Shown in pieces: positions 1-58,550 of a DNA stretch of 64,000 nucleotides (position 1 is the stretch's first letter; every line of letters starts with the position of its first letter). Below the pieces are notes generated by a model, which was not told the origin of the DNA, searched no databases, and saw only the letters and a program-made list of their open reading frames with translations. The translations under genes and the position numbers were made by a program. Location: positions 1 through 64,000 of IMG/VR virus record IMGVR_UViG_3300008116_000011; one strand, written 5' to 3'. This DNA is from a virus.

Positions 1-25
1 ATATATAAATATTTTAATATTTTGT

Positions 26-2008
26 TTATTTTATGATTCCTGCTCTGTATTTTAATTGTCTCATCATATAGTTATTAACTATTGATTCTTTTAAAAGTTC
101 TTCAGGAGAAAAAGTTTTTATATTATAATCTTGGTCAGTAATTTGTATAGTGTCAAAGTCGTCAGATTTTAATTGGACACTATTTTTTCCATGAATTTGT
201 CGCGTAAGTATATTTTCTGGTATTTTTTCTTTATTTTTAAAAAATTCTACTGCTTTAATGTTATCTTTAATAGTATTTCCATTTTCATCCATAATTACCC
301 ATACATCTTCAGGATATCCTTGCTTATTTCGTGGTGAATCTTTTTTATTACGGGTTATAAGATATGGTTTATTATTTAACTCAAACACGATTGGATATCC
401 CATAAAGAAATTAGAATATTTTTCTATATTACTTTTATCATTTTTTAAATTATTATACAAATCATTAAGTTTTTTTCTTTCTTCTGGGGATAGATTTGTA
501 TATGATTCTTGGCTAATAGAGGGTAAAGTAATAAATAATTCTGAAGCATTAGTAGAATCATCATTAGCTGATGATTCATCATATATTGCGTCTCTAAAAG
601 CTAAGGAGTAGGTATCATATAAATCCCTTTGTTCTTTAGTCATATATTTTCTAGCTTCAGGAGGTAATTCAACACTAAATTGTCCAACCTTATCTTGAAC
701 AAAATCCCTAGCACCATCTTCACCAAAATATTTTTCAATTAGACTGAATGATAGTTCATTTTCAAATGTTTTTAAATATTCTTTTTTTTCATCATTATCA
801 AGATACGGAACAAAAGCTAAAGGTAGTACAGTCGAAAATTTTTTATTTGTTTTATAATCATCTATACCTCTACTAAATCTAAACTTAGCATAACTTCTTA
901 ACAATCCAGGATTATTTTTTAGATCATTAAAACTAGCTTTGTATCCTGTACGTGAACGTAATGCTAAATTTTTTAACTCAGGATCTAATGTATTAAACAT
1001 TTCTTTAGTAAAAGCACTAGGCTCATCTGCACGGCGACCTATATAAATTGCTTTTTGATTTCTAGTTAGTTTTTTAAAAGTATCAAGGTTTAATATTTTA
1101 TCTTGAACTAAAGCAACATCAGTTTCCTGTTCAGATGGTGAAACATATTTAAATATATCTTTATGGTTTTTAATTTTATCCCATGCTTTTTTACCACTTT
1201 CCCCACCATATTTTGTCATGAAATTACCTATTTCATTCCATTCAACACCACTTCCTTTACCATCAAGTTCATGTTCTGTTCCATATTGGTTAACAGTATC
1301 AGTAACTCCATATTTACCATTTTCAAAAGCATGTATAACAAAAAAATGATACCAATTTTTAAAATTTTCTCTTTTAGTTGGATCTCCTTCAATTTCTGGT
1401 GATTGGGTTGGGTCTACTACAAAATAAAAGGTTCTATATAATGCTCCTCTACCACCAGATCCAAAACGATATGCATAATATCTATTAGCATAATCTTCTT
1501 TTCTACCTATACAAAAATTGTACGTGTATACTTTATTTTCTTGGTCTTTATATTTAAAGGCGTAATTTAACTTAATACATGACTCATAGTTTGATCCTTC
1601 ATATACTTTTAATTCAGAAGTATCATATACAATAGGTACACCTGATATTTTAACTAGTTCAGCATCTTGTACTGTATAAAAATCTTTAGATGTTTTTGTA
1701 GCTTTTTCACCATATGAGTCTATTAAATATTCTAGTTCTTTCCAACTATATTGAAATATATCTTGAGGATTAGATATTTTATTAGTTTTAGGGTCAGGTT
1801 GAGTAAAACGTGGAGGTAATATAATTTGCCCAGCTTTTAATTTAGTAGGAATGTTGGGTTTAATAGCTTCGAATCTATTAATAACTCTTTTAATTTCATC
1901 ATCATTAAGATCTTTTTTTTCTTTTTTAAATTTATCAATTAACTGATTAATTACTTTATCGGTATATTCTTGCAGTATTATTTTATTATATAGGTCTATT
2001 AATTTCAT
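26..2008 (-). CDS. Hypothetical protein with MKLxxL..ILQE leader and C-terminal ELLKE..RQLKYRAGII tail (putative virion head-packaged protein)
   Basis: 660-aa ORF; N-terminal leader resembles those of neighbouring genes. Confidence 0.6.
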   Translation of the reverse strand: MKLIDLYNKIILQEYTDKVINQLIDKFKKEKKDLNDDEIKRVINRFEAIKPNIPTKLKAGQIILPPRFTQPDPKTNKISNPQDIFQYSWKELEYLIDSYGEKATKTSKDFYTVQDAELVKISGVPIVYDTSELKVYEGSNYESCIKLNYAFKYKDQENKVYTYNFCIGRKEDYANRYYAYRFGSGGRGALYRTFYFVVDPTQSPEIEGDPTKRENFKNWYHFFVIHAFENGKYGVTDTVNQYGTEHELDGKGSGVEWNEIGNFMTKYGGESGKKAWDKIKNHKDIFKYVSPSEQETDVALVQDKILNLDTFKKLTRNQKAIYIGRRADEPSAFTKEMFNTLDPELKNLALRSRTGYKASFNDLKNNPGLLRSYAKFRFSRGIDDYKTNKKFSTVLPLAFVPYLDNDEKKEYLKTFENELSFSLIEKYFGEDGARDFVQDKVGQFSVELPPEARKYMTKEQRDLYDTYSLAFRDAIYDESSANDDSTNASELFITLPSISQESYTNLSPEERKKLNDLYNNLKNDKSNIEKYSNFFMGYPIVFELNNKPYLITRNKKDSPRNKQGYPEDVWVIMDENGNTIKDNIKAVEFFKNKEKIPENILTRQIHGKNSVQLKSDDFDTIQITDQDYNIKTFSPEELLKESIVNNYMMRQLKYRAGIIK

Positions 2009-2019
2009 TTTAATTTTAT

Positions 2020-2847
2020 TTAGTTTTTACAAACATTAATAATTTCAATAGCTTTTTCATCAAATATAATTCTAACCTGTCCATTACTATGAGTATTTCC
2101 ATCAATGCCTGCTCTTAATAAAAATAAAGAAGCATCCTTAGCGGCCCATTTAGAACCTTTATTTTGAAAATAACCTTGTATTTCACCATATATATTACTT
2201 GGTGATTGTTTAGTATCAATTTGAAAATCTAGTTTTTCTTTATTAGCTTGATTGTTTATTTTATCTACTTGATCTTGAGGAGTTTCCTTTTTATCCCAAT
2301 CTAAATAAGTATATTGATCTGGTCTTTTGCCTTTATGGAGAAGCACAGTATAGACATATTTCATATCTTCTGTTTCTACATTTAGATCTTTAATTATATT
2401 AATAAATTTTTTATATTCATCAATAATTTCATCTTTGCCTTCAAAATCTTCATATTGAAGATAATCAATAGTTTCCTCAGCATATTCTATAAAATCCTTA
2501 GCAGTTGTTAATCCTTTAGGTAACCTATTAAATACATCATTATCATATTCAAACGCTAATTCTTCAGGTTTTTTACCTTGAAATAATACTTGTTTTATAT
2601 TACCACGATTTCCTACTCCAGCATATCCTTTAGCTATATTAAAATCTTTACCAAAATATAATCCCCAACCATACATTTGTGATCCTGATCCTCCCCCAAT
2701 ACCTGCTGTTCTGAAGCATTTAAAGTTATGGGAAGTACCATGATAAGCTGTTTCTTCTTCTGTGTATAAAGAAATCATTTCATCAATAATTTGATTAGAA
2801 TGATCATTAAGTAGTAACTCAACTAAACTATATTTTGTATTTTTCAT
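2020..2847 (-). CDS. ADP-ribosyltransferase (ART-PolyVal-like) domain protein
   Basis: AYHGTSHNF..F....IGGGSGSQMYGWGLYF motif typical of polyvalent-protein ART domains; C-terminal RAGIDG...IIFD. Confidence 0.65.
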   Translation of the reverse strand: MKNTKYSLVELLLNDHSNQIIDEMISLYTEEETAYHGTSHNFKCFRTAGIGGGSGSQMYGWGLYFGKDFNIAKGYAGVGNRGNIKQVLFQGKKPEELAFEYDNDVFNRLPKGLTTAKDFIEYAEETIDYLQYEDFEGKDEIIDEYKKFINIIKDLNVETEDMKYVYTVLLHKGKRPDQYTYLDWDKKETPQDQVDKINNQANKEKLDFQIDTKQSPSNIYGEIQGYFQNKGSKWAAKDASLFLLRAGIDGNTHSNGQVRIIFDEKAIEIINVCKN

Positions 2848-2857
2848 CAGCTATATT

Positions 2858-3241
2858 TTAACCATATTGCAAATCTTTTATATGCTTTTCAAGATTTGTA
2901 CGCTTTGTTAATAATTGATTAAACTTCCATTCCATTATTTCATCAACAGGAGATAATTTAATAATATTTCCCTTATAATATCCTTTTACATATTCAGCAT
3001 TAGGATTATGGAATAATTCAAATCTAATATTGTCGTAGTTATAGGATCTAATTCTAAAATGTTTATCTCTATTTACATTAAAAACTTCATATATATGAGT
3101 TTTGTATGGAGAAATTAAGTCAACATCTTTAGGTTTCCTAAAAGGAATAGCTTTTTGTAATATAAGAGCAATACTACCACCAACATAAATGTCAGGATAT
3201 TGTTGTTGAATTGATAATATTTTATCTAATATATTATGCAT
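2858..3241 (-). CDS. Pol-beta superfamily nucleotidyltransferase-like protein
   Basis: VGGSIAL...RKPKDVDL (GS + DxD) motif. Confidence 0.6.
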   Translation of the reverse strand: MHNILDKILSIQQQYPDIYVGGSIALILQKAIPFRKPKDVDLISPYKTHIYEVFNVNRDKHFRIRSYNYDNIRFELFHNPNAEYVKGYYKGNIIKLSPVDEIMEWKFNQLLTKRTNLEKHIKDLQYG

Positions 3242-3776
3242 TGTCTCCTATATAATTTCCATCTTTATCAAAATTTTTAGTATCGGGGTGGTATTCGCCT
3301 GTGATATCAAACCATCCTACACTATATTCACCCTTACTATCTGGGTAAGGTATAGATAATGATATTTCATTTTCATTTTGCCAATTTATATGTATACACT
3401 CCTGAAATGAATTTTTAGGAGCTCCCGGACATGGAAATGACTCTGAAAGATCAAATATATCGTTACTTACAAATTTTTTACCATTTGGATATTTTTTTAT
3501 TAAGGAAATAATTTGTTCTAAATTCTTTACATATTCATCATTATCTTTATTACCTTCTATCATACCATTAATATATTCTAAGTCTCTATCTTCAGATGAA
3601 GGTTCATATAAATTGAATCCGCTATCTCCTTCTCCAAAAAATTCAAATAAAGTATATAATGGTTTTATATACATTGGATTTAATGTTGAACCTCCAGCAG
3701 GGATTACCTTTGCTTCTTTTACAGCACGCTTAATTATTTTCTTTAATTCTGTTATGTTAACTTTAACCTTATCCAT
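3234..3776 (-). CDS. Hypothetical protein with ELKKIIKRAVKE leader followed by AKVIP
   Basis: ATG start re-assigned to 3776, just after the upstream stop; leader resembles 31592-31918. Confidence 0.6.
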   Translation of the reverse strand: MDKVKVNITELKKIIKRAVKEAKVIPAGGSTLNPMYIKPLYTLFEFFGEGDSGFNLYEPSSEDRDLEYINGMIEGNKDNDEYVKNLEQIISLIKKYPNGKKFVSNDIFDLSESFPCPGAPKNSFQECIHINWQNENEISLSIPYPDSKGEYSVGWFDITGEYHPDTKNFDKDGNYIGDNA

Positions 3777-3778
3777 AT

Positions 3779-5761
3779 TTAAAATTTTGTTAGTACAATT
3801 ACACATTCATTATCATCATCACATATTTCTTCAACATGTACATACCCTGCTACACTTGTTTTATTATCAACTCTTTTTATATCTCCTGGTTTTATTGTGT
3901 TATAATAGGTAGTAATTAGATTTTTTGCTGTGGTTTGATTTAGATTAATTCCATAGAGAGGATCTCCCCCCCAGCCCCAATTATCTTTTAAGTAATCTTC
4001 TAAATTATCATAGCCCATCTCTCCTATAAGCTCCTCTATTGTATCATAATATAACAATGTTTTAAGTAAGTAAGGATTAAATTCATATACATCATCAACA
4101 ATCTTACTTTTTGATATTGGAGGTACTACTCGTGCTTCTTTTTTTAAATTTGTTTGGTATATTATTACATACTTGTTTTTATCAGGATTAGACATAAACA
4201 ATGTTTTATTGCGGTCTAGTTTATTTACCTTAATAAATTGCATCATTACTAATCTAGCAGCTGATTCTGTTTTTGCTTCAATTATTTCTATTTTGATATC
4301 ATCTTCACTAACATTATCAAAATTTTCATATTTTACTTTTTCAAGAAAATCTATTTTATATCCTTCTTTTTCAAATCCTTTTACTACTTTTTCAATAATA
4401 CTTTTTGCTACTGGTTGAGATATAGAAGTAGGTGTAGCAGCTGAGGTAATATTTGGGCTTCCTAAAATAGTACTCAAAGCAATACCGGCTGCTGCTAGTC
4501 CTTTTTTTAAGTCCATTTCATTTAAATCCTCTTTATTTAATTTTACTTTTGCCTTTTCAGTATTAGGAACAAATTGTTTTCCTTTTTTAGAGCCAGCTAC
4601 TTTTTTACGAGCAGTAGCAGCGCGTTCGTCTTTTGTTAAACTATTTGCTTTAGCACGAGGTAAACAACGAGTAGTTGCCTTACCTTTTTTCATTGTACCA
4701 CAAGGACCTGTAATGTTACCTTGAGTATCTATACGAACCCAATCTTCTTTTTCAAACCAATCACGTAATGATTCTTCTAAAGAATCAGTAGGAAAAGATT
4801 CATCTCCAAATTTATTGAGTTGTTTTTTTACATTTGGAGTAATTAAATAAGTTTGTCCTGCCTTAGGACTTTCTGTTTCTTTTCTAGCAATGGCTATTGG
4901 GTTGTTATTATATGTTCCTGTAATATAAAATGAATAAGCACATCTTGTAGGAACTATCCCAACGTATATATCAGTAGGCGTTATATTTAGGGAATTAAAT
5001 AATTTTTCAGCGTTATTTCGTGTTGTTGAATTTAATTTATCTTTACCTTCATCCCATGAAATTTTAATTCCTTTTTCTTGTCCACTAAGATTATATTTAC
5101 CTATTTTTAAATCTAACGTGCTAAAAGAATCAACATTAAATTTTTTTTTAAATTTTTGTAAACAATTAGCATATCGCAGAATATCTTCTCTTGATCTTTG
5201 CATTTGTGGTAGTACTCTAGCTTCGTCAATATATCTATCTTTAATATATTGTTCTATTTTATCTTCTTTATATCCTAATAGTTTACCTATTTTTCTAGTA
5301 TCGTCTGCTGTAGCATTTGATGCTAAATAACCACCATATTTTTCAGCTAAATCTTTTAATTGTGTAGCTTTATTTTCACTACCAGATAAATAAGCAACAT
5401 ATGCATCATATGGATTTCCTTTTACATACATTACTTTAATACCATTATCTTGTATAACTTTTTGAACGTATTCCCAATTTTCAGGAGTATTTGATTTTGC
5501 TACTATAAAAGCAACATCACGTTTTTTATCTCTTAATGTATTAATAGCATCAACATCATTATATGCTTCAGATGGATCAATACCTCTAAAATTATCTTCA
5601 TCTTCTTTCATTAATCCTTTACACACTTTAACAGCGCGTCCTGATAAGTAGGCAGATGGTTTTTCACCAGCTGCAATGCGACGATTATAGTAAGCTCTGC
5701 CTTTAGGGCACAGCTTTTTTTCATCTAGCATTTCTGATAGTATATCTGATAGTTTAATCAT
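3779..5761 (-). CDS. Multi-module (polyprotein-like) protein with MIKLSDILSE leader; includes PSAYLSG module, DUF5872-like module and a hydrophobic segment
   Basis: ATG at 5761; modules bounded by xxE motifs (MLDE, LMKE, YIDE|ARV, SLEE|SLR, DLNE|MDL, LKKE|ARV). Confidence 0.65.
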   Translation of the reverse strand: MIKLSDILSEMLDEKKLCPKGRAYYNRRIAAGEKPSAYLSGRAVKVCKGLMKEDEDNFRGIDPSEAYNDVDAINTLRDKKRDVAFIVAKSNTPENWEYVQKVIQDNGIKVMYVKGNPYDAYVAYLSGSENKATQLKDLAEKYGGYLASNATADDTRKIGKLLGYKEDKIEQYIKDRYIDEARVLPQMQRSREDILRYANCLQKFKKKFNVDSFSTLDLKIGKYNLSGQEKGIKISWDEGKDKLNSTTRNNAEKLFNSLNITPTDIYVGIVPTRCAYSFYITGTYNNNPIAIARKETESPKAGQTYLITPNVKKQLNKFGDESFPTDSLEESLRDWFEKEDWVRIDTQGNITGPCGTMKKGKATTRCLPRAKANSLTKDERAATARKKVAGSKKGKQFVPNTEKAKVKLNKEDLNEMDLKKGLAAAGIALSTILGSPNITSAATPTSISQPVAKSIIEKVVKGFEKEGYKIDFLEKVKYENFDNVSEDDIKIEIIEAKTESAARLVMMQFIKVNKLDRNKTLFMSNPDKNKYVIIYQTNLKKEARVVPPISKSKIVDDVYEFNPYLLKTLLYYDTIEELIGEMGYDNLEDYLKDNWGWGGDPLYGINLNQTTAKNLITTYYNTIKPGDIKRVDNKTSVAGYVHVEEICDDDNECVIVLTKF

Positions 5762-5762
5762 A

Positions 5763-6140
5763 TTACCATTTTCTACAAGACCAGTATCTTGCTTTGGTAC
5801 GTGGTCCTGGGTTATCACAATTGTGTCTTGCCCTAAATGCTTTGCGGCGTTTAGGGTTATTTTTCTTAATATTCATTCCCTTAGCACCAAAGTTTACTTT
5901 TACAACTTTATCTGTTTTAGGGTTTTTAACATATACTTTAAATTTCTTACTGTCACCACGCATTGGTTTACCTAATGGCACAGTACGACCTTGATACTTG
6001 GCTTCTAACATACAATCGCAAGTAGCTTCGTTAAGCTCTTGTTGATATGCTTCCATGAACTCAATAAATTCCTTTATATCTTGTTCATTTTCTACATCAT
6101 ATTCTTCTACTTCATCTAAAATTTCTAATAATTTAATCAT
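5763..6140 (-). CDS. Conserved basic phage protein (KVNFG...FRARHNC...ARYWSC) with acidic MIKL leader
   Basis: Recognisable conserved phage motif; acidic N-terminus, basic C-terminus. Confidence 0.65.
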   Translation of the reverse strand: MIKLLEILDEVEEYDVENEQDIKEFIEFMEAYQQELNEATCDCMLEAKYQGRTVPLGKPMRGDSKKFKVYVKNPKTDKVVKVNFGAKGMNIKKNNPKRRKAFRARHNCDNPGPRTKARYWSCRKW

Positions 6141-6707
6141 AGCAGTTTATTTTGCATATCAAATATATTTAAAGATACTCATAACGATTAAACATTTGTC
6201 TTAACTTAGATCTAAACTCAGGCCATAATTTATTAATTTCTTCTTGAGTAAGATTATCTGATATTTTATTAATTATTGTGTCTACAATTGAAGGTACTTC
6301 TTGAAAATATTTTTCTGAAAAAGTAATATTATGTTTTTTCTTTAGTTTATTAAAAAAATACTCGTTAATATCGTATTGTATTGTATTTAAAATATATCTT
6401 TTAAGATTTGATTTATTAAAATTTTCAGGAGGAGATAAATGTTTATATTTTATAAAATCTAAAATACTATTTTTAACATCATAATATAACCTTTTTTTCA
6501 TTCGCTCAAATCGATTTTTTACAACATCACTTTTCCATAATTCACGGTCGGTTGTTGGATACCTATTAACAGGAGCTTCAGGTTTATTTTGATTAGAATT
6601 AGGAAATTGATCAGTCCTTGTGGAAGTCCACGTGTAACTTTCATTTTTTTGTTTTGCTAACTCAGTTAATATGTTTATTAATTTAATCATAGTAGTTTAT
6701 TTTGCAT
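6129..6707. repeat. 29-bp direct repeat pair (6129-6157 and 6679-6707, 1 mismatch) flanking gene 6169-6690
   Basis: taatttaatcatag(c/t)agtttattttgcat occurs at both positions. Confidence 0.9.
6169..6690 (-). CDS. Hypothetical protein with MIKLINILTE leader
   Basis: 173-aa ORF with the shared leader. Confidence 0.6.
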   Translation of the reverse strand: MIKLINILTELAKQKNESYTWTSTRTDQFPNSNQNKPEAPVNRYPTTDRELWKSDVVKNRFERMKKRLYYDVKNSILDFIKYKHLSPPENFNKSNLKRYILNTIQYDINEYFFNKLKKKHNITFSEKYFQEVPSIVDTIINKISDNLTQEEINKLWPEFRSKLRQMFNRYEYL

Positions 6708-6933
6708 GCCACCAATTACAACAATATTCATCTGCAGGAGCCGGAACTTTTGCTTTACCATCACGCCATTTCAACCAGTATTCATTATTACATAAATTAC
6801 CTTTTTCAACCCAATATTCACAGTTAGCACACATTGAACCACCTTTAGTTACACGCATACCTGGTTTATGGTCTGCTGGGTATTCAATTTTACCTTCTGT
6901 AATTAATCCTAGTAGTTCTGTTAATTTATGCAT
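6697..6933 (-). CDS. Small Cys/Trp-rich protein (HiPIP-like Cys pattern) with MHKLTELL..ITE leader
   Basis: CANCEYW...C...CCNWW; ATG at 6933 overlaps the upstream gene end. Confidence 0.5.
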   Translation of the reverse strand: MHKLTELLGLITEGKIEYPADHKPGMRVTKGGSMCANCEYWVEKGNLCNNEYWLKWRDGKAKVPAPADEYCCNWWHAK

Positions 6934-7198
6934 GGTTTTGTTTTTCAAAAAATTCAACTTTAGTACGTAATTCAGCTACTTGAGAAGTTAATTGTAATAT
7001 TAAATTACGCATTTCCTCTTTTTCTCTAGATGATTCTTCTAATAGGGCTTCTAATTTAGCTATCCTATCTTTGCAATCATGACGAATAAAATCAGCATCG
7101 CGTTCACGATACAGTGCTCGTTTTTCATAATAACGGAAAGCTGTTGTACCACCCAAAACCGTTATTGCTGTAACAAGTACCGTCCAAACATTATCCAT
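6926..7198 (-). CDS. Membrane-anchored coiled-coil protein
   Basis: N-terminal hydrophobic helix followed by heptad pattern. Confidence 0.55.
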   Translation of the reverse strand: MDNVWTVLVTAITVLGGTTAFRYYEKRALYRERDADFIRHDCKDRIAKLEALLEESSREKEEMRNLILQLTSQVAELRTKVEFFEKQNHA

Positions 7199-7231
7199 AT
7201 ATAAAGAGATATTTGATTTTACATATAAATA

Positions 7232-7801
7232 TTAAGAATTTATTTTATCTTTTAATTGTTGTAGCTTATCCATGATTTGTTTTTTAACTTCCTGCTTATC
7301 TAACCCATTTCCTACCCAATTTTGGATAGTACCATCTTCCATTACATAAGTTTCATTAATTAAATCATCTAAAAATTGATCTAAACCACTACTTACATTA
7401 TCTGCAAAATACAAAGCGTTTTTTCTAATCATATTTTTTTCATATTCCTCATATTTGCCTTGCATTTTTAATTCACTCTCCATATCAGTAACACAATGTA
7501 AACACATTTGGTGAATACCATACATCTTTTTATCCAAATGGTGTTTCATTGGTTTTGAACATTTTGGACATAATAAAGGTATTGATGTACCTTCTGTTTT
7601 GCGCAAAGTGCGTTTAACACCATTTTTAATAGTCCATGTTTTACCATTTTCTTCCCACACATCACCTTCATTATGGCGTTCTTCTGCTTTAGTATATCCT
7701 ACAGAAGTAATTGTTTTTTCGTTACCTTTCTTTTGTACTAGATTTCGAATACGTTGTAAATCTCTCTCCGTAAACTGTTTTTTTAACTGTGTTTCTTTCA
7801 T
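7232..7801 (-). CDS. Conserved phage protein with Zn-ribbon
   Basis: GDVWEENGKTW; CPKC...CLHC. Confidence 0.6.
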   Translation of the reverse strand: MKETQLKKQFTERDLQRIRNLVQKKGNEKTITSVGYTKAEERHNEGDVWEENGKTWTIKNGVKRTLRKTEGTSIPLLCPKCSKPMKHHLDKKMYGIHQMCLHCVTDMESELKMQGKYEEYEKNMIRKNALYFADNVSSGLDQFLDDLINETYVMEDGTIQNWVGNGLDKQEVKKQIMDKLQQLKDKINS

Positions 7802-7804
7802 AAC

Positions 7805-8719
7805 TTATTTTTTATTTAAATGCTCAAATAAATTAGGTTTTGCTTGAGCAAAATTACGCATAATAATAGCTGCTCTAGAATTAGCTTCATTTTCATCATC
7901 ACTACCTGTAGTTCCAGAGTCTGATTTTAAGCGACCTTCTAAATCTTGTTTATAATGTACTAATTCATGTGCTAATGTTCTAAAAATATCTGCTGGGTGT
8001 CTTTTGGCTATTACTATGTTAATTGATTTGTCACTTGGTCTATATCCACCCCAAGAGCGCAAATCAATTGCTTCTTGTGAGTCGTTAGATAAGGTAATTT
8101 TAGGTAGTTTTTCTAGTTGAAGTTCATCCATTACATGCTTCATAAACTCACTAACTAAACTTTTATTTAAATTTTCTTTTAATATTTCAACATCTTGAGG
8201 ATCAACAATAATTGCTTTAATTTTATCTTTACCCAAAAGTTTATGTGCAAAATATCTATGATGACCATCTACAATTTGATACTTATTTCCTAATTCACGT
8301 ACAATAATTGGAGGTAATTCTTTACCTGCTTTAATAGTTTTTATAAGATCTTTTAATGTGGCTTTAGATTTAGGCTCTAACATTTTACTAGCAGGCTCAT
8401 TTAATAGTAACATATCTAATGGAATATCACTAGTAGGCATTTTACTAATTTCTATTTCACTGTAGTCAACATCTGCACCTTGACCTCCAGGATATATTTT
8501 AACTTTAATTTCTAGATTTAATTTATCAAGTTTTGTATAATATTTTGGATCTTCTACTAAATGATCCATAGCAATACGTGCAGCACGTTTTGCATTATCA
8601 GTATGTTCTTTTTCAACTTTAACACCCTTTTTTAATTCTTTTTTAAGGGTATCTACATCTACCTTATGTTTTTTTGCAATGTCTCCAATAGACATTCCTT
8701 TAGATAATCCGTTTGCCAT
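7805..8719 (-). CDS. Three-module fusion: DUF5661-like + ParB/Srx-like + HEXXH metallopeptidase-like
   Basis: GVKVEKEH...IAMDHL.E.PKYY; PPIIV...IVDGHHR; RTLAHELVH..Q...ENEAN. Confidence 0.7.
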   Translation of the reverse strand: MANGLSKGMSIGDIAKKHKVDVDTLKKELKKGVKVEKEHTDNAKRAARIAMDHLVEDPKYYTKLDKLNLEIKVKIYPGGQGADVDYSEIEISKMPTSDIPLDMLLLNEPASKMLEPKSKATLKDLIKTIKAGKELPPIIVRELGNKYQIVDGHHRYFAHKLLGKDKIKAIIVDPQDVEILKENLNKSLVSEFMKHVMDELQLEKLPKITLSNDSQEAIDLRSWGGYRPSDKSINIVIAKRHPADIFRTLAHELVHYKQDLEGRLKSDSGTTGSDDENEANSRAAIIMRNFAQAKPNLFEHLNKK

Positions 8720-8780
8720 GTATATAAATATAAAAAAAGGCTTGGATATACCAAGCCTATTTTAAACATATAGATGTAAT

Positions 8781-9563
8781 TTACGATAATTTTATTGAAA
8801 TTGGTAGTAATTCTGTTGCGGGTTTAGCATCAGGATTTTCAAGTTTATATATATCGTATATTTTAAGAAACATTTCAAAATTACGGTCAATATCACCTAC
8901 GGATTTCAATTGCCATCCTTTACCTTGTATTGCATCACCTTTTCCCTCACCCCTAGTAGCGGCTTTTAACCACAAAATACCTGTTTCCTCAATTGGTGTA
9001 TCATGTGTTTCATTCCATGCTTTGGCATATGATGCTAACTGTAAATCATATGACGTGTGAAGTGAATTAGATGTTTTAACATCCATTAACCATACTTTAC
9101 CTTTTAACTTAATAATTAGGTCAGCAGTACCCGCATATTTGTGGTTATCTGAAAATAGATGATATTCAGTTGCTATCAATTCTGGTTTGTGTGTATTCCA
9201 AAAATCAGCAAATTTAAGAATCATTTTCCAAACATCAAGAGAATAAATTGCATTTCCATACTCATCGATCCAATTAATTTCATTTCCATTAATAAATGAT
9301 TCAACAGCATTGTGTACTTGAGTACCCTCGGCTGCGGCTTTAGCAGCAATAATATCACTATTATGACCTACATCTTTAAGCCAAGAATGAAAGAATTGGT
9401 TTTTAGGAAAATAATTTAAAATAGATGAAACAGAAGGATAATATTCCTCATTTCGTCTATAAAAGCGTTGATCCAAAACGTTAATTTGTTTATTATCCGC
9501 ACTGTATTCTACAATGCGTTTAATTTTTGGATCTTTAATGATGTTTACATTTTTATCTATCAT
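8781..9563 (-). CDS. PD-(D/E)XK exonuclease (RecB/Cas4-like)
   Basis: YPSVSSIL, GTQVH, AGTADL, DVKTS, QLASY. Confidence 0.85.
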   Translation of the reverse strand: MIDKNVNIIKDPKIKRIVEYSADNKQINVLDQRFYRRNEEYYPSVSSILNYFPKNQFFHSWLKDVGHNSDIIAAKAAAEGTQVHNAVESFINGNEINWIDEYGNAIYSLDVWKMILKFADFWNTHKPELIATEYHLFSDNHKYAGTADLIIKLKGKVWLMDVKTSNSLHTSYDLQLASYAKAWNETHDTPIEETGILWLKAATRGEGKGDAIQGKGWQLKSVGDIDRNFEMFLKIYDIYKLENPDAKPATELLPISIKLS

Positions 9564-10513
9564 GCTAATTCTAATTTTTTACTTACAAGGGTAGAAAAAG
9601 TAAGAGGAGGAGTAGCTTCGATGTTCTCTAGGAAGCGCTCGAAGCCAATTTCGTTTGCATCTTTTCCTCCTAACTCTACCAAATATACTTCTTTACCAAA
9701 CGACAATAACCTTTCACAATGTTTAATTGCTTCTTTTAAAGCATCATTATCTAGAGCAATGTACACTTTTTGTACTTGGGAGCCAACTATTTTCTTCATT
9801 AGTGCTTCTGAAATTGTTTTTCCTAGAAGCGGAATAACGTTACGTTTAATAGTTAGAGCATCAAAAATACCTTCTACAAGGATAATAGGTGCATTCCAAT
9901 TAATGTAATATTCCCACGTAATGATGTTTCTGTCAACTGCTGGATTTTTATATTTTTGTGGGTCGTCTGAGAGATAGGTACGTGATGAGAAGAAGTTTAG
10001 AATACCATTTTCATCATATGATGGAACAACAATACGTTTTGCAAAATTACCCTCAGCACAAAAACCGATATTATATTTTATAATGTCGTTTTCAGTAATA
10101 CCACGTTGTTTAAGAAACTTAAGGGCATGTCGTGCTTCGATTTGTGTAATTTTATCTAGACTGGATGTGGTGGTTAGAGAAATAAATTCTTTAGGGAGTG
10201 AAAGATTATGAATTTGATTTTCTTGCTTCTTTCCAGGCTTAATAAGGGAATTAAGTTCGGCAATTTTATGAGATGGTGCCTTTATTTTTTTAAATAAGGA
10301 AGAAAGTGTCTTACCCTTTTCACCGCATACCCAACAGTGCCAAGGATTTTCCTTTTTTTCATTTGTGTGAACCTGAATTTCTAACTTGGTTTTGGAGTGG
10401 TGGCAAAAAGGACAACTAAATGCCATGTTGTTGCGAGCGGTTGAACGTCCTTTACCTATAACAGACTCTACCAATACCACCAACATTTTCTCCCTTATTC
10501 CCTCTTCATTCAT
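9560..10513 (-). CDS. DNA primase (DnaG-like, Zn finger + TOPRIM)
   Basis: CPFC...HCWVC; KYKNP; LVEGIFD; ALDND; KDANE. Confidence 0.9.
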   Translation of the reverse strand: MNEEGIREKMLVVLVESVIGKGRSTARNNMAFSCPFCHHSKTKLEIQVHTNEKKENPWHCWVCGEKGKTLSSLFKKIKAPSHKIAELNSLIKPGKKQENQIHNLSLPKEFISLTTTSSLDKITQIEARHALKFLKQRGITENDIIKYNIGFCAEGNFAKRIVVPSYDENGILNFFSSRTYLSDDPQKYKNPAVDRNIITWEYYINWNAPIILVEGIFDALTIKRNVIPLLGKTISEALMKKIVGSQVQKVYIALDNDALKEAIKHCERLLSFGKEVYLVELGGKDANEIGFERFLENIEATPPLTFSTLVSKKLELA

Positions 10514-10555
10514 AACTTTTTAAACCTCCTGTAGGGTAAAGCTAATGGGGATTTC

Positions 10556-10987
10556 TTAGGTTTCCAAATCTCTAGTAAAAAACTTACCTAATATATTGTC
10601 GTTGTATGATCTGTTTTTACCTATTAATACTTCTTCTTTGCACTGGTAATGCATTTCGTAATAGGTTAGTTCTTTTTTAGTGCGACATTGCTTAAGAATC
10701 CAGCAATCAAAATTATCTTCTCCGTATTGTTTAATATCTGCGAGTAGTTGTTTATTTGATCCCCAATATTTCATCCAGTCACTTTCAGTACGAATTACTT
10801 CATGAGTTGGTTTACGCCCTGGTCCTGATTGTTCAGCGAGTTGTTTTTTGGTAAGTTTATGTTTTTTGTTATTCCAAAACACTTTTTTCCCAATGTAAAA
10901 CTTTCCTGTTTTTAAGTTAATTATTTTATAAACAAATCCAAAATATTTTTCTGGGTTTACTATATCCCAACTTTTCCATTTATGCAT
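10556..10987 (-). CDS. GIY-YIG family nuclease-like protein
   Basis: GFVYKI...FYIGKK, YWGS, YNDNI. Confidence 0.7.
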   Translation of the reverse strand: MHKWKSWDIVNPEKYFGFVYKIINLKTGKFYIGKKVFWNNKKHKLTKKQLAEQSGPGRKPTHEVIRTESDWMKYWGSNKQLLADIKQYGEDNFDCWILKQCRTKKELTYYEMHYQCKEEVLIGKNRSYNDNILGKFFTRDLET

Positions 10988-10991
10988 AAAC

Positions 10992-11573
10992 TTATTTTAA
11001 AGTTATAACATTCCAATTATTTTCTTTACTTTGAGTAGCTCCTGAATTTTGTTTTTTTATATAAGCTAAATATAAATTTTCTCTTTGAGACCCATTATCA
11101 CTAGTTTCTGTATCTTGTTGTACTGGAGGATTATCTTCTGGTTTAAAACTTTTATTAGGTTTTATTTTATTAGTAGTTTTAATTTTTTGAGCAGGAACAA
11201 ATAATAAATATTTAATATTCTTATTATTATCCAATACAGATTTAATTGATTTAGATACCGTTCCCATTATCCTAAATAAATATCCTTTATTAAGTACAGG
11301 AAAAAGCCATTGATTTCCTTCAACAACACCAAATGATACAGCGGCTGCATTTACTGATTTACTTAAATCGAATCTAGGTTTAGTAACATTATCGCTTGGT
11401 TGAGACACAATATCATCTTTATCACCTAATTGTATAGCTACCCAAAAATTATCAATAGGAAAATCAGGATCATTTATTTTAAACCAAATATTTTTTCCTT
11501 GTTGAATTTCCTCCGTGTTATAATATTTGGAACCTTCACCAATTTCTAATAATATATCAATTAATTTTATCAT
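10992..11573 (-). CDS. Hypothetical protein with MIKLIDILLEIGE leader
   Basis: ATG at 11573; shared leader. Confidence 0.6.
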   Translation of the reverse strand: MIKLIDILLEIGEGSKYYNTEEIQQGKNIWFKINDPDFPIDNFWVAIQLGDKDDIVSQPSDNVTKPRFDLSKSVNAAAVSFGVVEGNQWLFPVLNKGYLFRIMGTVSKSIKSVLDNNKNIKYLLFVPAQKIKTTNKIKPNKSFKPEDNPPVQQDTETSDNGSQRENLYLAYIKKQNSGATQSKENNWNVITLK

Positions 11574-11574
11574 A

Positions 11575-11913
11575 TTATTTATCATATCTAACGACAAATG
11601 TCATATCTGTGTTTTGAGAAATAGGAATAGGTTGTGCAAATTTAGCTACAGCTAATAAATCATTTTGTTCATTGTATAAACCAACTGTTGTAACATATGG
11701 TTCAAAGTATGATGCTGTTGCAAAATCTTTTAATTGAGGTAAAGGTGAATTTAATGATTGACTATAAAAATTACTACCACTAAAGAAATTATTTTTTAGT
11801 AATGTTGGGTTATATGAAGCATTAAACTCGTTATCTTTAACGTGGCAAATAACATTTTGTTGATATATTGTTACTTGGTTTTGAAAAGATAAACTAAGGC
11901 TAGATATAGGCAT
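11575..11913 (-). CDS. Tail/baseplate structural domain (tail-collar-like), paralogous to the C-terminus of 21556-22581
   Basis: YVTTVGLYNEQNDLLAVAK vs FITTVGLYNDQNELLAVAK. Confidence 0.7.
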   Translation of the reverse strand: MPISSLSLSFQNQVTIYQQNVICHVKDNEFNASYNPTLLKNNFFSGSNFYSQSLNSPLPQLKDFATASYFEPYVTTVGLYNEQNDLLAVAKFAQPIPISQNTDMTFVVRYDK

Positions 11914-11930
11914 AAGTTAGTAATTTATAA

Positions 11931-12590
11931 TTAAACTTGAACACAATCACTACCTCCACATCCTGATCTACCATACACTGTAGGCAAATCATTACTATTA
12001 GGAGATGCTGTTATACTAGTTATTTGATAACAAGCATTATTAAAAGGATTATCTGTAAATGAAACAATATCATTTAAAGCTAATGCTAATATACTTCTAT
12101 AATCAGTTCCTGCACCTCCACTACATGGTGTAAGAGTATAGTAATTATAAGATGAAGGAGAAGATGGTGTTATTGAAGGAGTTATAGTAGGAGTAGGGGT
12201 AATTGTTCTTGTTGGTGTAATAGAAATTGATGGAGTAATAGATACAGTAACTGTAGGACTAATAGTAGGTGTTATAGTAATTGTAGGCGTTATAGAAGGT
12301 ACAATACTAAGTGTTGGAGTAATAGTAGGTGTAATAGTAGGTGTTGGAGCCATAGACACTGGAGGTGTAGGGAATATTACTTGTACTTCATTAGAACACC
12401 CATATGCATTATTATATACAACTATAGATGATGAAGGTACATTATCAGGTAATTCAACAGATATACCTGCTTGTAATTGGACTAAACTTACATCTGATTG
12501 ATATAAGGTTTCTCCACTGCTACCTGATAAATAAACATCAAAAGGTCCAGGAGCTTTACCTCCTGTAAGTTGTAAAAAATATTGTCTCAT
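11931..12590 (-). CDS. Small virion-surface protein with TP-repeat linker and Cys-rich C-terminus
   Basis: TPTITPS repeats; GPFDVY N-terminal motif. Confidence 0.65.
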   Translation of the reverse strand: MRQYFLQLTGGKAPGPFDVYLSGSSGETLYQSDVSLVQLQAGISVELPDNVPSSSIVVYNNAYGCSNEVQVIFPTPPVSMAPTPTITPTITPTLSIVPSITPTITITPTISPTVTVSITPSISITPTRTITPTPTITPSITPSSPSSYNYYTLTPCSGGAGTDYRSILALALNDIVSFTDNPFNNACYQITSITASPNSNDLPTVYGRSGCGGSDCVQV

Positions 12591-12602
12591 ACGATATAAA
12601 TA

Positions 12603-13254: not shown

Positions 13255-16200
13255 TTAAAGACATCCTGCATCTGAACAATCTGTATCTATAGGTGTAAAT
13301 AGTTCTCCTGTTAAGAAGCTTGGAGAAGCTGCTGAAATTACTTCGAAACATCCTCCTATTGTACCTCTATAGTAGCTAAATCTATTTAAAGCATTAACTG
13401 ATATAACAGTACCAGTGTTACCTTCACAATATAGGACCCCATGTGAATATGTTACAACCGGAGTAGATGTTACAGAGCGTGTTGGTGTTAAAGTTGGTGT
13501 AATTGAAGGAGATGGGCTTCGTGTTGCCGTTATAGAAGGAACAGGTACAGGACAATTTAAAGTATAATACCATACTGTGGTAGACATAGGAGCATACACA
13601 TCAACTTGAGCAACAGTTGTAGATGTAGTCTTAATAAAAGAAGTAGATCCAGCAGCACTTCTAACAGTAGGATATCCATCTGAATCAACGTCATATGCGT
13701 TAATATTAGGATATGTTAGTCCTGTAACAGGATCTATTTTACCTGTTAAACTATTTGTAAATGAACTACGATCAGAATTACCAATTCTATAACTATTAGC
13801 ACCTCTATATCCAGCATATATTACAATATTACCATCAAATCTAACTAAAAATAAATCAGGAACAGAATCAGCATCAAAATCTAATACAACCTCTCCACCA
13901 TCAGTTCCTAAACTTACAGTTTTTGAACTTGGGTATGCTGATCCACCACTAAATGATTGAGCCTGGCTACATAATGCTACGGAAGGTGAAGGTGTAATTG
14001 TTCTTGTTAATGTTGGTGTCGGTGTAATTGTTCTAGTTACAGAAACAGTAAGTGTAGGTGTTGGTGATGCCGTAGGGAAATTGAAATCACAAGTTCCATA
14101 AGTTACAGTAAATGTTTGAGTTCCGGTTATACTACCATACTTAAGATAGAAAAATCCAAGTTCTGAGCTGCAAGGAAGTGATAGATTTGCTGATACTTCT
14201 AATGATGTATTATATGTGTTGCCATAGCAATCTTGATAGCTTATATTATTAGTAGTAGGGCCTGTATTAGTAATTGTACCTCCACAGAAACAAGGACATG
14301 GTGAAGTTGTAGGTGTAACTGATGGGGTTCTAGATGGTGTAATTGTTGGTGGCAATGATGTTGACGGTGTTATTGATGGTGTAACTGATGTAGTTCTAGA
14401 TGGTGTAATTGTTGGTGGCAATGACGGTGATGGTGTGATTGATGGTGTAATTGACGTAGATGCAGATGGTGTAATTGTTGGTGGCAATGACGGCGATGGA
14501 GTAATACTTGGACTAGCTGTTATACTAGGTGTAATTGTTGTACTAGGTGTAATAGTTGGCGTTATAGTACTAGAAGGGGTAATACTAGGAGTAGCTGTTA
14601 TACTAGGTGTAATAGTAGATGATGGAGTAATTGTCCTTGTAGGTGTTAAAGTAGGTGTAATTGTTCTAGATGGAGTAACAGTTAATGTTGATGTAGGAGT
14701 AGGATCAGGACAATTACCTTCAGTTACTGTAACAGGAGGAGAACCATTCCAATTAGTAACTAACCAAGGATATAGCACATTATCCGCTGAGCTATAGAAG
14801 GTAACAGCACTATTGGTATCATAAAGTCTCCATCCCGGGTTACCGATTCCAAATAAATTTAAATCCCAATATAATTGAAATGAAAATAATCCACCACCAT
14901 ATGAACGACTATAGAATGGTCTACCATTAACAATATTTTGAAAAGTATATGTTCCCTCTCCATTAGTTAAACCAGTTCCTGTAACGCATGCATTACTATT
15001 AATCCATACACTTATAGTAGGAGTAGGAGTTGGTGTAATTGTTTTTGTTGGTGTTCTTGTTGGTGTAATTGTTATAGATGGAGTTATAGTTAATGTAGGG
15101 GTAAGTGTTGGTGTAATTGTAAGTGTTGGGGTAGGGCTTGCTTCTGGACATGCATCTTTAGCAACAGTAGGTGCCGGGCTTGCTCCAGAACCATTCAAAG
15201 TCCATGTATTTTCCCATACTTGTCTTGAAGCAGGAGCTGCAAAAGCATCAGTAGTGTACAGTATTTGAAGTATATTAAAATCATATAACTCCCACAGTGT
15301 ATTAGCTAAACTATATCTTATTTGTATATTAGCATCACCTATTTTATCATATCTTGGAGCTCCATTAACAAATCCATTAACTGTATATGTTCCATTTGCT
15401 TGAGATGATCCAGCTCCAGTAACACATATAGAACTTAAATCATAAGATGATGGACTAGGAGTAGTAGTAACAGTTGGTGTTCTTGTTACAGTAGGTGTTC
15501 TAGTAGCTGATCTTGTTGGTGTTCTTGTTGGTGTAATTGTTCTTGATGGTGTTCTTGTTATAGTTGGAGTAATACTAGGAGTAATAGTTGTTGTTGGTGT
15601 AATAGTTGCTGTTGGTGTTACAGAAGCAGTTCTTGTTACTGTAGGAGTAATAGTGGAACTTGGTGTAACGGTAGATGATGGAGTAATAGTTGGAGTAACT
15701 GATGTTGTTGGTGTGATAGTTGGAGTATCAGTAATAGTTGGAGTAATAGTTCTTGTTGGAGTAATTGTCGGTGTAATAGTAGCTGAAGGAGTTATAGTTA
15801 AACTAGGTGTTACAGTTGGTGATGCTGTTATACTAGGTGTAATTGTAGAAGAAGGAGTTATTGTAGCAGTTGCTGTTATAGTTGCTGTTGGTGTAATTGT
15901 CGGTGTAATAGTTGCTGTAGGTGTAACTGTAAGTGTAACAGTTACTGTAGGTGTAATAGTCCGAGTAGGAGTAATACTTGGGCTAGCTGTAATACTTGGT
16001 GTAATAGTTCGAGTAGGGGTTACAGTTGGAGAAGCAGTTATACTAGGTGTAATAGTAGCACTTGGTGTAATAGTAACACTTGGCGTAATAGTAGCTGTTG
16101 CTGTAATTGAAGGTGTAATTGTAACAGAAGGTGTAATGGTTGAACTAGGAGTTACTGTTGGTGAAGCAGTAATACTAGGCGTTATTGTTACACTTGGAGT

Positions 16201-19200
16201 AATTGTTCTAGTAGGTGTTATAGATGGACTAGCTGTAATTGAAGGAGTAACAGTTACAGATGGAGTAAGTGTTACTGTTGGAGTAATTGATGGACTAGCT
16301 GTAATTGATGGAGTTATTGTTACACTTGGAGTAACTGTCCGAGTTGGTGTTATAGAAGGTGTTATAGTAACAGATGGTGTAATTGTTGAACTTGGAGTAA
16401 CAGTTGGAGAAGCAGTTATACTTGGTGTAATAGTAACTGAAGGAGTTATTGTTGCACTTGGAGTTATAGTCCTAGTTGGAGTAATAGTTGGAGTAATAGT
16501 AGCACTTGGAGTAACAGTAACAGTTGGTGTTATACTTGATGTAGGTGTAATAGTTGGAGTAATAGTAGCACTTGGAGTTATAGTAGATGATGGAGTAATT
16601 GATGGAGTTATAGTAACCGAAGGAGTTACAGTAACACTAGGCGTTATAGTAGCTGTTGGTGTAATACTTGGTGTTACAGTAACACTAGGCGTTATAGTCC
16701 TAGAAGGTGTAATTGTCCGAGTTGGAGTAATACTTGCTGTAGCAGTAATACTAGGTGTAACAGTAACAGAAGGTGTAATTGTAGATGATGGAGTAATTGA
16801 TGGAGTTATAGTAACCGAAGGAGTTACAGTAACACTAGGAGTAATTGTAGATGTTGGTGTAATTGAAGGAGTAATTGTAGCACTAGGAGTAATTGTCCTT
16901 GTTGGTGTTATAGTTGGTGTAGGAGTTATACTAGAAGTTGGAGTAATTGTAGGAGTAACAGTAGCACTAGGAGTAATAGTATTAGTAGGTGTAATTGTAG
17001 GAGTAACTGTTGCACTTGGTGTTACAGTTGCACTCGGAGTAATTGTCCGAGTTGGAGTAATACTAGCTGTTACACTAGGAGTTACTGTAGAAGTAGGTGT
17101 TAATGTTGGAGATACTGTAGCTGTAATACTAGGTGTAATACTTGGAGTTACAGTAGGTGTTACAGTAACACTAGGAGTTACTGTAGTAGTTGCTGTTATA
17201 GTTGGTGTTATACTAATACTAGGCGTTACAGTAGGAGTAACACTAAGTGATAAGAAAGGAGTTAATGTCGGAGTATGAGTAGGTGTTATACTAGGTGTAA
17301 TACTTGGAGTAACTGTAATAGTTGGTGTAATACTCGGAGTAATTGTTACACTAGGTGTAACAGTAGATGATGGTGTTATAGTAACACTTGGTGTTACAGT
17401 TAATGTAGGTGTAATTGTTCTAGTAGGAGTAATACTAGGAGTTATAGTAACACTTGGCGTTACAGTAGTACTAGGGGTAACTGTTCTACTAGGAGTAATT
17501 GTAGGAGTAACAGTAGCACTAGGAGTAATAGTATTAGTAGGTGTAATTGAAGGTGTAATTGTAGCTGAAGGAGTTATAGTAGCAGTTGGAGTAAGTGTAG
17601 CTGAAGGAGTTAATGTTGGAGTAACAGTTACAGACGGAGTAACCGTACTAGATGGCGTTATTGATGGGGTAACAGTAACACTAGGTGTAACTGTTCTACT
17701 AGGAGTAATTGTAGGAGTAATTGTTGCACTTGGCGTCACAGTAATACTAGGCGTTATAGTTGATGTTGGTGTAATTGAAGGAGTGATAGTAGGTGATGGA
17801 GTTACAGTTACACTAGGGGTAACAGTTACACTAGGTGTAACAGTACTAGAAGGTGTAATTGTCCTTGTAGGTGTAATTGATGGTGTAATAGTAACAGAAG
17901 GTGTTATTGTAGCTGATGGAGTAACTGTGTTACTAGGTGTAATTGTAGGTGTTATAGTAGCACTTGGAGTTACAGTAGATGATGGAGTAATTGTATTAGT
18001 AGGTGTTATACTTGGTGTTATAGTAACACTAGGAGTAATTGTTGCACTAGGTGTAATTGTCCTTGTAGGTGTAATCGATGGAGTTATTGTTACACTTGGT
18101 GTTACAGTTGCTGTTGAAGTAATTGAGGGTGTAATTGTAACAGTAGGAGTAACTGTTGCACTCGGAGTAATTGTAACAGTAGGAGTAATACTAGGAGTAA
18201 CAGTTGCACTTGGTGTTACAGTAACACTTGGAGTAACAGTAGCACTTGGCGTAATAGTATTAGTTGGTGTTATAGTAGGAGTAACTGTTGCACTCGGAGT
18301 AATTGTTACAGTAGGTGTAATACTTGCTGTTGGTGTAATACTTGGAGTAATAGTAACACTAGGTGTAACTGTAGCACTTGGTGTTATACTCGGAGTAATT
18401 GTTACACTAGGAGTAACAGTAGCACTTGGAGTAATAGTATTACTAGGAGTAATTGTAGGAGTAACAGTTGCACTCGGAGTAATTGTTACAGTTGGAGTAA
18501 TTGTAGCTGAAGGAGTTAATGTTGGAGTAACAGTTACAGACGGAGTAACAGTAGCACTTGGTGTAATAGTAGCGGTTGCTGTAATAGATGGTGTTATAGT
18601 TGCACTTGGTGTTACAGTTACACTAGGTGTTACAGTAGCGGTTGCTGTAATAGATGGTGTAGTAGTAACACTTGGGGTAGCTGTTATACTAGGAGTAATA
18701 GTAACACTAGGAGTAACAGTAGCACTAGGAGTAATTGTTGCACTAGGTGTTACAGTTACAGATGGAGTAACAGTAGAAGTAACAGTTGCAGATGGAGTAA
18801 CAGTAGCACTAGGAGTAACTGTTGCACTAGGTGTTACTGTAGAAGTTGGTGTTATGCTTGGTGTAACAGTATTACTAGGTGTTATACTTGGGCTAATACT
18901 AATACTTGGTGTAATAGAAGGAGTTACACTAAATGATAAAAAAGGAGTTAATGTTGGAGTATGAGTAGGTGTTATACTTGGACTGATACTAGTACTTGGA
19001 GTAATAGTAGGAGTAGGAGTAATAGAAGTTGTTCTAGTAATTGTAGGAGTAACAGTTACTGTAGGAGTAAATGTTGTTGATGGTGTAATACTTGGAGTAG
19101 CAGTTATAGAAGGTGTTACTGTAGGAGTTTCAGTTACAGATGGTGTAATTGTAACAGTAGGAGTAATTGTTGCTGATGGAGTAACTGTACTGCTTGGAGT

Positions 19201-31176: not shown

Positions 31177-31592
31177 TATTCAAAATTAACTGTTACTGTA
31201 TCTGTTTGCCCTGATATTAATATTTGATAGTCAATTTTAACAACCAGAGTATTACTACCATATTCTCCTTCCTGTAAAAAATCTACTCGATTTATTAAGA
31301 TTTCAGGAATGTATGTTTGAACACTATCAACAATACTATCCCTAATATCACCAAAAGTAGCTTCCGTCATCTGCCCAAATAGTTGGGATCTTAAAAGAGT
31401 ACCAAATTCAGGATTATCTATTCTTTCACCTTTTGATGTTAATAATAAATTTACAAGATTGTATTTTAATTGATCTTTAGTAGAAAAAGTACTATAAAAA
31501 ACACCCGGGGCGTTAAATGGTAGTTTAACACCGATTGCTGTGTTTCGTTGTAAATCTCTAGGATCAACCCTAGTACTTCTTACATAAGCCAT
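31176..31592 (-). CDS. Baseplate wedge protein gp25/GPW-like
   Basis: NLLLT.KGER..NPEFG. Confidence 0.9.
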   Translation of the reverse strand: MAYVRSTRVDPRDLQRNTAIGVKLPFNAPGVFYSTFSTKDQLKYNLVNLLLTSKGERIDNPEFGTLLRSQLFGQMTEATFGDIRDSIVDSVQTYIPEILINRVDFLQEGEYGSNTLVVKIDYQILISGQTDTVTVNFE

Positions 31593-58373: not shown

Positions 58374-58376
58374 ATG

Positions 58377-58463
58377 TGCCTCCAGCGGGAATCGAACCCG
58401 CACGAACTTTTTCGGTTCACAGGATTTTAAGTCCTGCGTGTCTACCAATTCCACCACAAAGGC
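58377..58463 (-). tRNA. trnL: tRNA-Leu(TAA)
   Basis: GCCTTTG..GGTAGACAC..CAGGA CTTAAAA TCCTG, long variable arm, GGTTCGATTCC; CCA not encoded. Confidence 0.95.
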
Positions 58464-58547: not shown

Positions 58548-58550
58548 TTA

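Follow-up and report, generated by a model that had tools for sequence, protein, structure and literature searches.

The DNA analysed here (the window) is the first 64 kb of IMG/VR record IMGVR_UViG_3300008116_000011, the 174,437-bp genome of an uncultured T4-like phage with about 30% G+C and nearly all of its genes on the minus strand. Our subject is a short peptide, referred to below as the leader or tag, that stands at the N-terminus of otherwise unrelated proteins encoded near the left end of the window, and that we read as a probable capsid-loading signal of the kind known from phage T4. The "direct terminal repeat" of the record is a mere 22-nt assembly overlap (window 1-22 and record positions 174416-174437), and the genome is therefore circular or circularly permuted. 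The left edge of the window joins the region at 165.8-174.4 kb, and a tag-rich island of about 16 kb runs on from there into window positions 26-7198, where genes 7198 to 26 form a single tightly packed block on the minus strand. Baseplate wedge proteins are also encoded within the window. Judged by the prohead protease, the nearest cultured relatives are Flavobacterium phage vB_FspM_immuto and Microcystis phage Mel-JY01; a megablast comparison of window positions 1-12000 with GenBank phages returned no match.

The original prediction held that six unrelated proteins, with starts at 2008, 5761, 6140, 6690, 6933 and 11573, share the leader, and all six N-termini are indeed present on the minus strand. 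The canonical ten-residue form, M-I-K-L-x-x-I-L-x-E, is found at the starts 5761, 6140, 6690 and 11573, and an extended form of 13-14 residues at 6933 and 2008. The leader Met lies directly after, or overlaps, the stop codon of the upstream gene, so that it is a plausible true start. The carriers and candidate carriers in this part of the window are the following:

26-2008, minus strand: 660-residue candidate cargo protein of unassigned fold, with an extended 14-residue leader at 1967-2008 that ends L-Q-E (from the translation).

2020-2847, minus strand: stand-alone 275-residue protein of the ADP-ribosyltransferase (ART) fold, ART-PolyVal type, whose first ten residues (2818-2847) end L-V-E (from Pfam, a structure model and orthologues).

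3234-3776, minus strand: 180-residue candidate cargo protein with a 21-residue N-terminal helix ending V-K-E and followed by A-K-V-I-P; the Glu codon is at 3716-3714 (from the translation).

3779-5761, minus strand: 660-residue candidate cargo polyprotein with predicted cuts after Glu180 and Glu542, a weak DUF5872 match and PHROG hits.

5732-5761, minus strand: canonical leader MIKLSDILSE of this multi-module protein, its ATG directly after the stop codon of the upstream gene.

5763-6140, minus strand: 125-residue candidate cargo protein with the leader MIKLLEILDE at 6111-6140 and a match to phrog_7595.

6169-6690, minus strand: 173-residue candidate cargo protein, assigned to no family by Pfam or PHROGs, with the leader MIKLINILTE at 6661-6690 (from the translation).

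6697-6933, minus strand: 78-residue Cys-rich candidate cargo protein with an extended 13-residue leader at 6895-6933 (from the translation).

10992-11573, minus strand: 193-residue candidate cargo protein with the leader MIKLIDILLE at 11544-11573 (from the translation and blastp).

For most of the cargo bodies, Pfam and PHROGs searches gave nothing or weak matches only, and searching a protein atlas with the 660-residue protein at 26-2008 led to nothing usable. The C-terminal domain of the protein at 5763-6140 occurs alone and untagged in podoviruses of Pelagibacter and Roseobacter, cultured pelagiphages included; the orthologues in IMG/VR relatives are tagged. The extended leader of the Cys-rich protein (6697-6933) has the same build as leaders seen on orthologues of the ART-fold protein.

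Further canonical carriers lie elsewhere in the genome (starts 108184, 137296, 150891 and 167447), and a second, longer leader class is present on five genes (114841, 151729, 152184, 160981 and 168201). Among the 230 called proteins, the core K-L-x-x-[IL]-[IL]-x-E has nine matches within 30 residues of the N-terminus and a single one among about 49,000 internal positions. A looser layout derived from the capsid-targeting sequence (CTS) of T4, with hydrophobic residues at positions 4, 7 and 8 and Glu at position 10, fits 8 of the 230 N-termini, compared to 0.59 expected (binomial P about 2e-7), and every segment that scores 7 or 8 of the 8 consensus positions is N-terminal. Beyond their first 15-29 residues, the carriers show no relatedness by blastp. 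The leader copies are written in codons unlike each other and their upstream DNA is unconserved, which identifies the peptide, and not a DNA repeat, as the conserved element. A Sec, Tat or lipoprotein signal peptide was rejected since the tag is short, contains two acidic residues and has no hydrophobic run or core.

Related helical leaders had also been proposed at 2847, 3776 and 31918. Of these, the one at 3776 stands, the one at 2847 holds only indirectly, through orthologues that possess canonical tags, and the one at 31918 is left unsupported: its helix is the conserved N-terminus of one orthologous family in relatives and gives no evidence of portability.

31592-31918, minus strand: 108-residue baseplate-region protein with an N-terminal helix that is conserved among orthologues; a weak candidate.

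A third "class C" of helical leaders (3776, 31918 and 170439) was discarded because it yielded no clean pattern, with three N-terminal and two internal matches.

To follow the leader into related genomes, we scanned IMG/VR with a degenerate DNA pattern for M-I-K-[LF]-x-D-I-L-x-E, which matched at least 120 contigs. All 148 of the IMG/VR matches listed lie at the starts of open reading frames (ORFs); with the tag removed, the tagged genes (at least 148) fall into at least 66 unrelated clusters. The reversed pattern, run as a control in IMG/VR, gave 0 matches. In cellular genomes (596 Gb), just 29 of the 89 pattern matches are located at ORF starts, and several of these 29 are evident phage contigs with families also found in IMG/VR. 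Among the IMG/VR matches listed, the cluster representatives include lysozymes, M23 peptidase, NUDIX, RNase T and DUF5872 proteins, as well as Zeta-toxin-like and other P-loop kinases and RimK-type ATP-grasp enzymes. Positions 5 and 9, unconstrained by the search pattern, vary widely across the 139 distinct IMG/VR examples, and conservation ends after Glu10. Two complete relatives have five canonical carriers each, in clusters, and the cultured phage vB_FspM_immuto possesses one tagged gene, gp231. In the genome studied here, gene 137296 is a member of the largest IMG/VR tagged family, and gene 170439 begins with a different helix where its IMG/VR orthologue (locus L119) has the canonical tag. 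A tblastn search of GenBank phages with two common IMG/VR tagged families gave no match, and literature searches for the tag as a string retrieved no paper.

As a separate observation, gp129 of Pelagibacter phage HTVC008M (locus L143, 5498-6160) is an orthologue of an often-tagged P-loop kinase family and starts instead with an eight-residue helix ending L-K-E; this suggests that there are lineage-specific dialects of the tag.

The protein at 2020-2847 had been singled out in the original prediction as ART-like, and both its predicted fold and its conserved residues bear this out. Its PF18760 score of 27.5 bits is under the Pfam gathering cut-off of 31.2; a 95% identical homologue and many distant ones have a precomputed PF18760 match. 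The AlphaFold model (predicted local distance difference test score, 83; first 13 residues disordered) finds its best fold match in PDB 9k3a chain B (Foldseek E value 4.7e-5, Z 12.1, 155 residues aligned, root-mean-square deviation 4.4 Å), and then in an almost unbroken run of PARP and diphtheria-toxin catalytic domains (Z 7-8). In the family alignment, Y64 shows no variation and H36 and D263 reach at least 90% conservation, a pattern that suggests catalytic roles for His36, Tyr64 and Asp263. Just before the conserved core, the homologues carry the canonical leader, the extended one, other helices ending [LIV]-x-E, or the T4-like M-K-T-F-K-E-F-I-N-E. The local and the T4-like tag thus appear interchangeable on ART orthologues. 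An orthologue with 81% identity starts with the canonical tag M-T-K-L-I-D-I-L-N-E, and with its orthologues tagged, the first ten residues of the 2020-2847 protein, which end L-V-E, are best read as a diverged tag.

The genome also encodes the machinery by which such a tag would be removed. Its prohead protease is a Peptidase_S77 enzyme of the T4 gp21 type (E value 1.5e-31; 35% identical to T4 gp21) in which both catalytic residues, His and Ser, are retained; the solved T4 chain 5JBL departs from wild-type gp21 at these two sites. Adjoining the protease gene are small leader-bearing genes (152184, 151729 and 150891) and the genes of an acidic scaffold and a T4 gp23-related capsid protein. This capsid protein has V-V-E|S at the position aligned with the T4 maturation cut, and it starts with a leader-like nonapeptide ending L-L-E. 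The scaffold is rich in [LIV]-x-E, at 6.15 per 100 residues compared to 1.63 in the proteome. Of 19 tag-bearing records, 12 have an S77 protease, among them all six with a completeness of at least 79%; the remainder are fragments.

A second motif, E-A-[RK]-[IVL]-x-P, occurs 11 times in the genome, in leader proteins only, and has an aliphatic residue two positions before the Glu in 10 of the 11 cases. Six copies stand directly after a leader (that at 3716 included) and five are internal, two of them in the 3779-5761 protein and three in the protein starting at 167447. The two internal sites of the former are:

Codon 5224-5222, minus strand: predicted internal cut after Glu180, I-D-E|A-R-V-L-P.

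Codon 4138-4136, minus strand: predicted internal cut after Glu542, K-K-E|A-R-V-V-P.

Parts of this polyprotein recur in other arrangements in IMG/VR: its residues 61-173 correspond to a separate tagged gene (locus L064), and its residues 11-56 and 326-408 are found in one tagged gene of another locus (L070).

The leaders resemble parts of the phage's own scaffold. In this genome and three relatives, the scaffold C-terminus reads R-[MW]-[QK]-x-L-A-[GN]-I, which is the core of the longer leader class, and the motif [DN]-L-[DSEN]-E-[IL]-L-A-E-L is present internally, once or twice, in the scaffolds of the phage and its relatives. The scaffold gene itself (149201-150325, outside the window) encodes two L-D-E-I-L-A-E-L copies, one of which matches the canonical tag at 6 of 8 consensus positions. 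The T4 tag likewise resembles the start of gp22. These resemblances would support docking by scaffold mimicry. Tentatively, and with somewhat less than even confidence, we suggest that the tag classes reproduce stretches of the scaffold, such that any protein so tagged would be built into the core and clipped free afterwards. The M-I-K-L tag would correspond to the internal L-D-E-I-L-A-E-L, and the longer class to the C-terminal R-M-Q-K-L-A-G-I.

Two features at the DNA level accompany the tagged genes. The first is a promoter-like motif ahead of the block:

7224-7231, minus strand: TATTTATA motif, a candidate late-type promoter of the cargo block, 25 nt upstream of gene 7198 (suggested by strand bias).

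6926-7198, minus strand: first gene of the block 7198 to 26, encoding a 90-residue protein with an N-terminal hydrophobic helix and a coiled coil, without the leader (from a reading of the translation; Pfam and PHROGs were searched).

In general form, TATTTAT[AT] occurs 55 times on the coding strand and 14 times on the other, and lies 3-27 nt ahead of many structural genes and several leader genes; sites on the minus strand include 7224-7231, 8723-8730 and 12595-12602 in the window and about 30 others genome-wide. We regard it as a candidate late promoter. The second feature is a codon preference. Codon 7 of the tag (Ile) is ATA in 132 of the 139 distinct IMG/VR examples listed, against a baseline of 46% (P about 1e-35), and in six of seven canonical copies of the genome (e.g., 5743-5741, 6672-6670 and 11555-11553), while all remaining synonymous sites of the tag vary freely. 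Avoidance of T-runs was rejected as the cause of this bias since ATA is also used ahead of CTA. The near-fixed ATA may add a layer of co-regulation at the RNA level.

In our assessment, the shared N-terminal peptide is a clip-off capsid-loading tag, this lineage's version of the T4 CTS, with a probability of roughly 0.75. The same tag on unrelated proteins, laid out like the load-then-cut signal of T4, suggests that these proteins are probably carried inside the particle; we infer their packaging, cleavage and injection from sequence patterns and from the analogy with T4. The view of the original prediction, that the leader is a portable peptide of the T4 CTS and propeptide type, is upheld by the gp21-type protease, the positional layout, the spread over at least 66 families and the exchange of tags on ART orthologues. 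The tag would form a short amphipathic helix, M-I-K-L-x-[D/E/N]-I-L-x-E, at times extended to 13-14 residues. The tagged proteins would be produced late, alongside the head proteins, and the tag would dock them in the scaffolding core of the empty prohead. The gp21-type S77 protease would then cut after Glu10 (aliphatic-x-Glu) and free the mature protein in the head, the scaffold being degraded meanwhile, and the 3779-5761 protein would be split further into modules at its internal E|A-R-V-x-P joints. At infection, the cargo, the ART-fold protein included, would exit with the DNA, like the internal proteins and Alt of T4.

Several points weigh against this interpretation. A search for virion proteomes, of this phage or of tag-bearing relatives in culture, found none. 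In IMG/VR, the tag is carried by many seemingly ordinary enzymes (NUDIX, ATP-grasp, kinases) that are not necessarily virion proteins, and some of the predicted cargoes are large (660 residues). The specificity ascribed to the protease is borrowed from T4 and from patterns in the sequences, two complete relatives lack the E|A-R-V-x-P motif, and late expression would depend on a promoter-like motif that is unvalidated. The ATA bias points to an extra constraint at the RNA or codon level that the capsid model leaves unexplained. Finally, the tagged genes are located away from the head gene cluster, as are the ip genes in T4.

Among the competing explanations, one keeps the targeting to the prohead but takes the carriers to be accessory, core- or scaffold-like assembly factors that are degraded and expelled in maturation and not delivered. 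The position of the small tagged genes 152184, 151729 and 150891 on either side of the protease gene and the likeness of the tag to scaffold segments would fit such a role, and T4 gp67, gp68 and gp22 act in this way (PMC5694885). We nevertheless consider it unlikely, since the carriers include many folded enzymes (ART fold, lysozymes, M23 peptidase, NUDIX, kinases) without an obvious assembly role, and since the closest precedents, T4 Alt and the internal proteins, are retained and injected. It is also improbable that the tag has a purpose apart from the capsid, be it translational or RNA-level control at the 5' end of the mRNA, a degradation or timing signal, or a helix for docking to another phage or host machine. 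The peptide is invariant while its other synonymous sites are free, its end matches the protease consensus, it is found together with the S77 protease, it is swapped with a T4-like CTS on one family (ART), and E|A-R-V-x-P joints recur within the polyprotein; against these observations stand the extreme ATA bias at codon 7, the location of tagged genes among non-structural genes and the indirect nature of the evidence for packaging. A by-product of AT-rich codon usage, for which the roughly 30% G+C and the commonness of I, K, L, N and E might speak, or a repeated DNA cassette spread by recombination can both be set aside as highly improbable, given 8 observed and 0.59 expected N-terminal matches, no matches to the reversed pattern, listed viral matches that all lie at ORF starts, and codons and flanks that differ between copies.

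A number of further genes in the window were recorded in passing. A SegE-type GIY-YIG homing endonuclease gene (10556-10987, minus strand; E value 1.6e-26) is placed between a primase-like gene (9560-10513) and the tagged gene 10992-11573. The 304-residue protein encoded at 7805-8719 (minus strand) combines DUF5661 and ParB N-terminal domains with an H-E-x-x-H motif and is without the leader; its build is typical of phage polyvalent proteins, and a TATTTATA motif is found 3 nt upstream of its gene. Positions 13255-20307 (minus strand) hold a 2,350-residue Thr/Pro-rich ORF, with a very strong GC skew across 14-20 kb, and the neighbouring 219-residue protein (11931-12590) contains similar T-P repeats. 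At 58376-59726 (minus strand), ARAGORN detected tRNA-Leu, tRNA-Thr and a gene for a tmRNA whose tag peptide has 23 residues.

The CTS of T4 is the handle by which counter-defence and host-takeover proteins are loaded for delivery together with the DNA, and it is the basis of T4 protein-delivery engineering. If the leader described here acts as a capsid-loading tag, a large group of aquatic T4-like phages would possess a distinct and strongly conserved signal of this kind, and the delivered proteome could be listed from the genome sequence alone. In the phage studied here, this set would include an ADP-ribosyltransferase-fold protein and a multi-module polyprotein, and in its relatives lysozymes, kinases, NUDIX and ATP-grasp enzymes. 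Should the proposed scaffold mimicry also be true, the packaged proteome of hundreds of uncultured T4-like phages could become readable, polyprotein cargo and many enzymes included, and the likeness between tag and scaffold would offer a testable answer to the question of what a CTS binds. With its tagged gp231, vB_FspM_immuto is a cultured carrier for experiments.

Four known systems invite comparison. PDB 9k3a chain B, the closest fold match of the ART-fold domain at 2020-2847, comes from the pre-ejectosome within the capsid of cyanopodophage A4 (PMC12002296), a location that speaks for the capsid-loading interpretation. In A4, a podovirus, the domain belongs to a protein more than 1,600 residues long for which no cleavable tag has been reported, whereas the protein described here stands alone, with 275 residues and a short N-terminal leader. 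The giant phages phiKZ, 201phi2-1 and SPN3US possess propeptides that are cut by gp21-related proteases (PMC5694885). Their proteases are related to the one found here, the cut follows a Glu (as predicted for our phage), and some giant-phage head proteins are cut more than once. In contrast, giant-phage propeptides are mostly longer than 100 residues and have S, A or G two positions before the Glu; the leaders described here do not belong to this type, with their 10-21 residues and Leu, Ile or Val at that position.

In T-even phages, the genes of hypervariable internal-protein loci begin with a conserved CTS-like sequence (Repoila et al., 1994, as cited in PMC9026906). Like the island analysed here, these loci are clusters of fast-changing genes whose sole common feature is the tag. 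They were described from close relatives of T4 and encode small basic proteins, whereas here the predicted cargo is diverse and identity to T4 in the core head proteins is only about 30-35%.

The closest parallel is T4 itself. Its CTS is present on IPI, IPII, IPIII and Alt and, in the form of a ten-residue propeptide, on gp24, and it is removed by gp21 (Mullaney and Black, 1996, as reviewed in PMC9026906, PMC3012670 and PMC5694885). The first ten residues of IPIII are sufficient for packaging; positions 4 and 7 serve targeting, positions 8 and 10 processing, and Asp at position 10 blocks cutting while targeting is kept (PMC9026906). In the T4 record, the N-terminal tag of ipII and ipIII is ten residues long and has I-A-E at its end, followed in ipII by A-R-V; the gp24 propeptide matches M-x-K-[IL]-x-x-[IL]-L-x-E, and Alt, gp22, gp67 and gp68 begin with similar helices. 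The local tag has hydrophobic residues at 4 and 7, an aliphatic one at 8 and Glu at 10, the very positions mapped in T4. Both systems thus place a ten-residue N-terminal tag of the same layout on unrelated proteins, often with Ala after the (here predicted) cut, in the company of the same protease family and head module, and both count an ADP-ribosyltransferase (here by its fold) among the carriers. They differ in the sequence of the tag, M-I-K-L-x-D-I-L-x-E here and M-K-T-Y-Q-E-F-I-A-E in T4. The carrier families here, known from genes alone, are far more numerous and more enzymatic, several tag classes are present side by side in one genome, and there are polyproteins with E|A-R-V-x-P joints inside them among the predicted cargo. 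While ten residues are too few to prove common descent, the tag system of this phage looks homologous to that of T4 rather than merely analogous.

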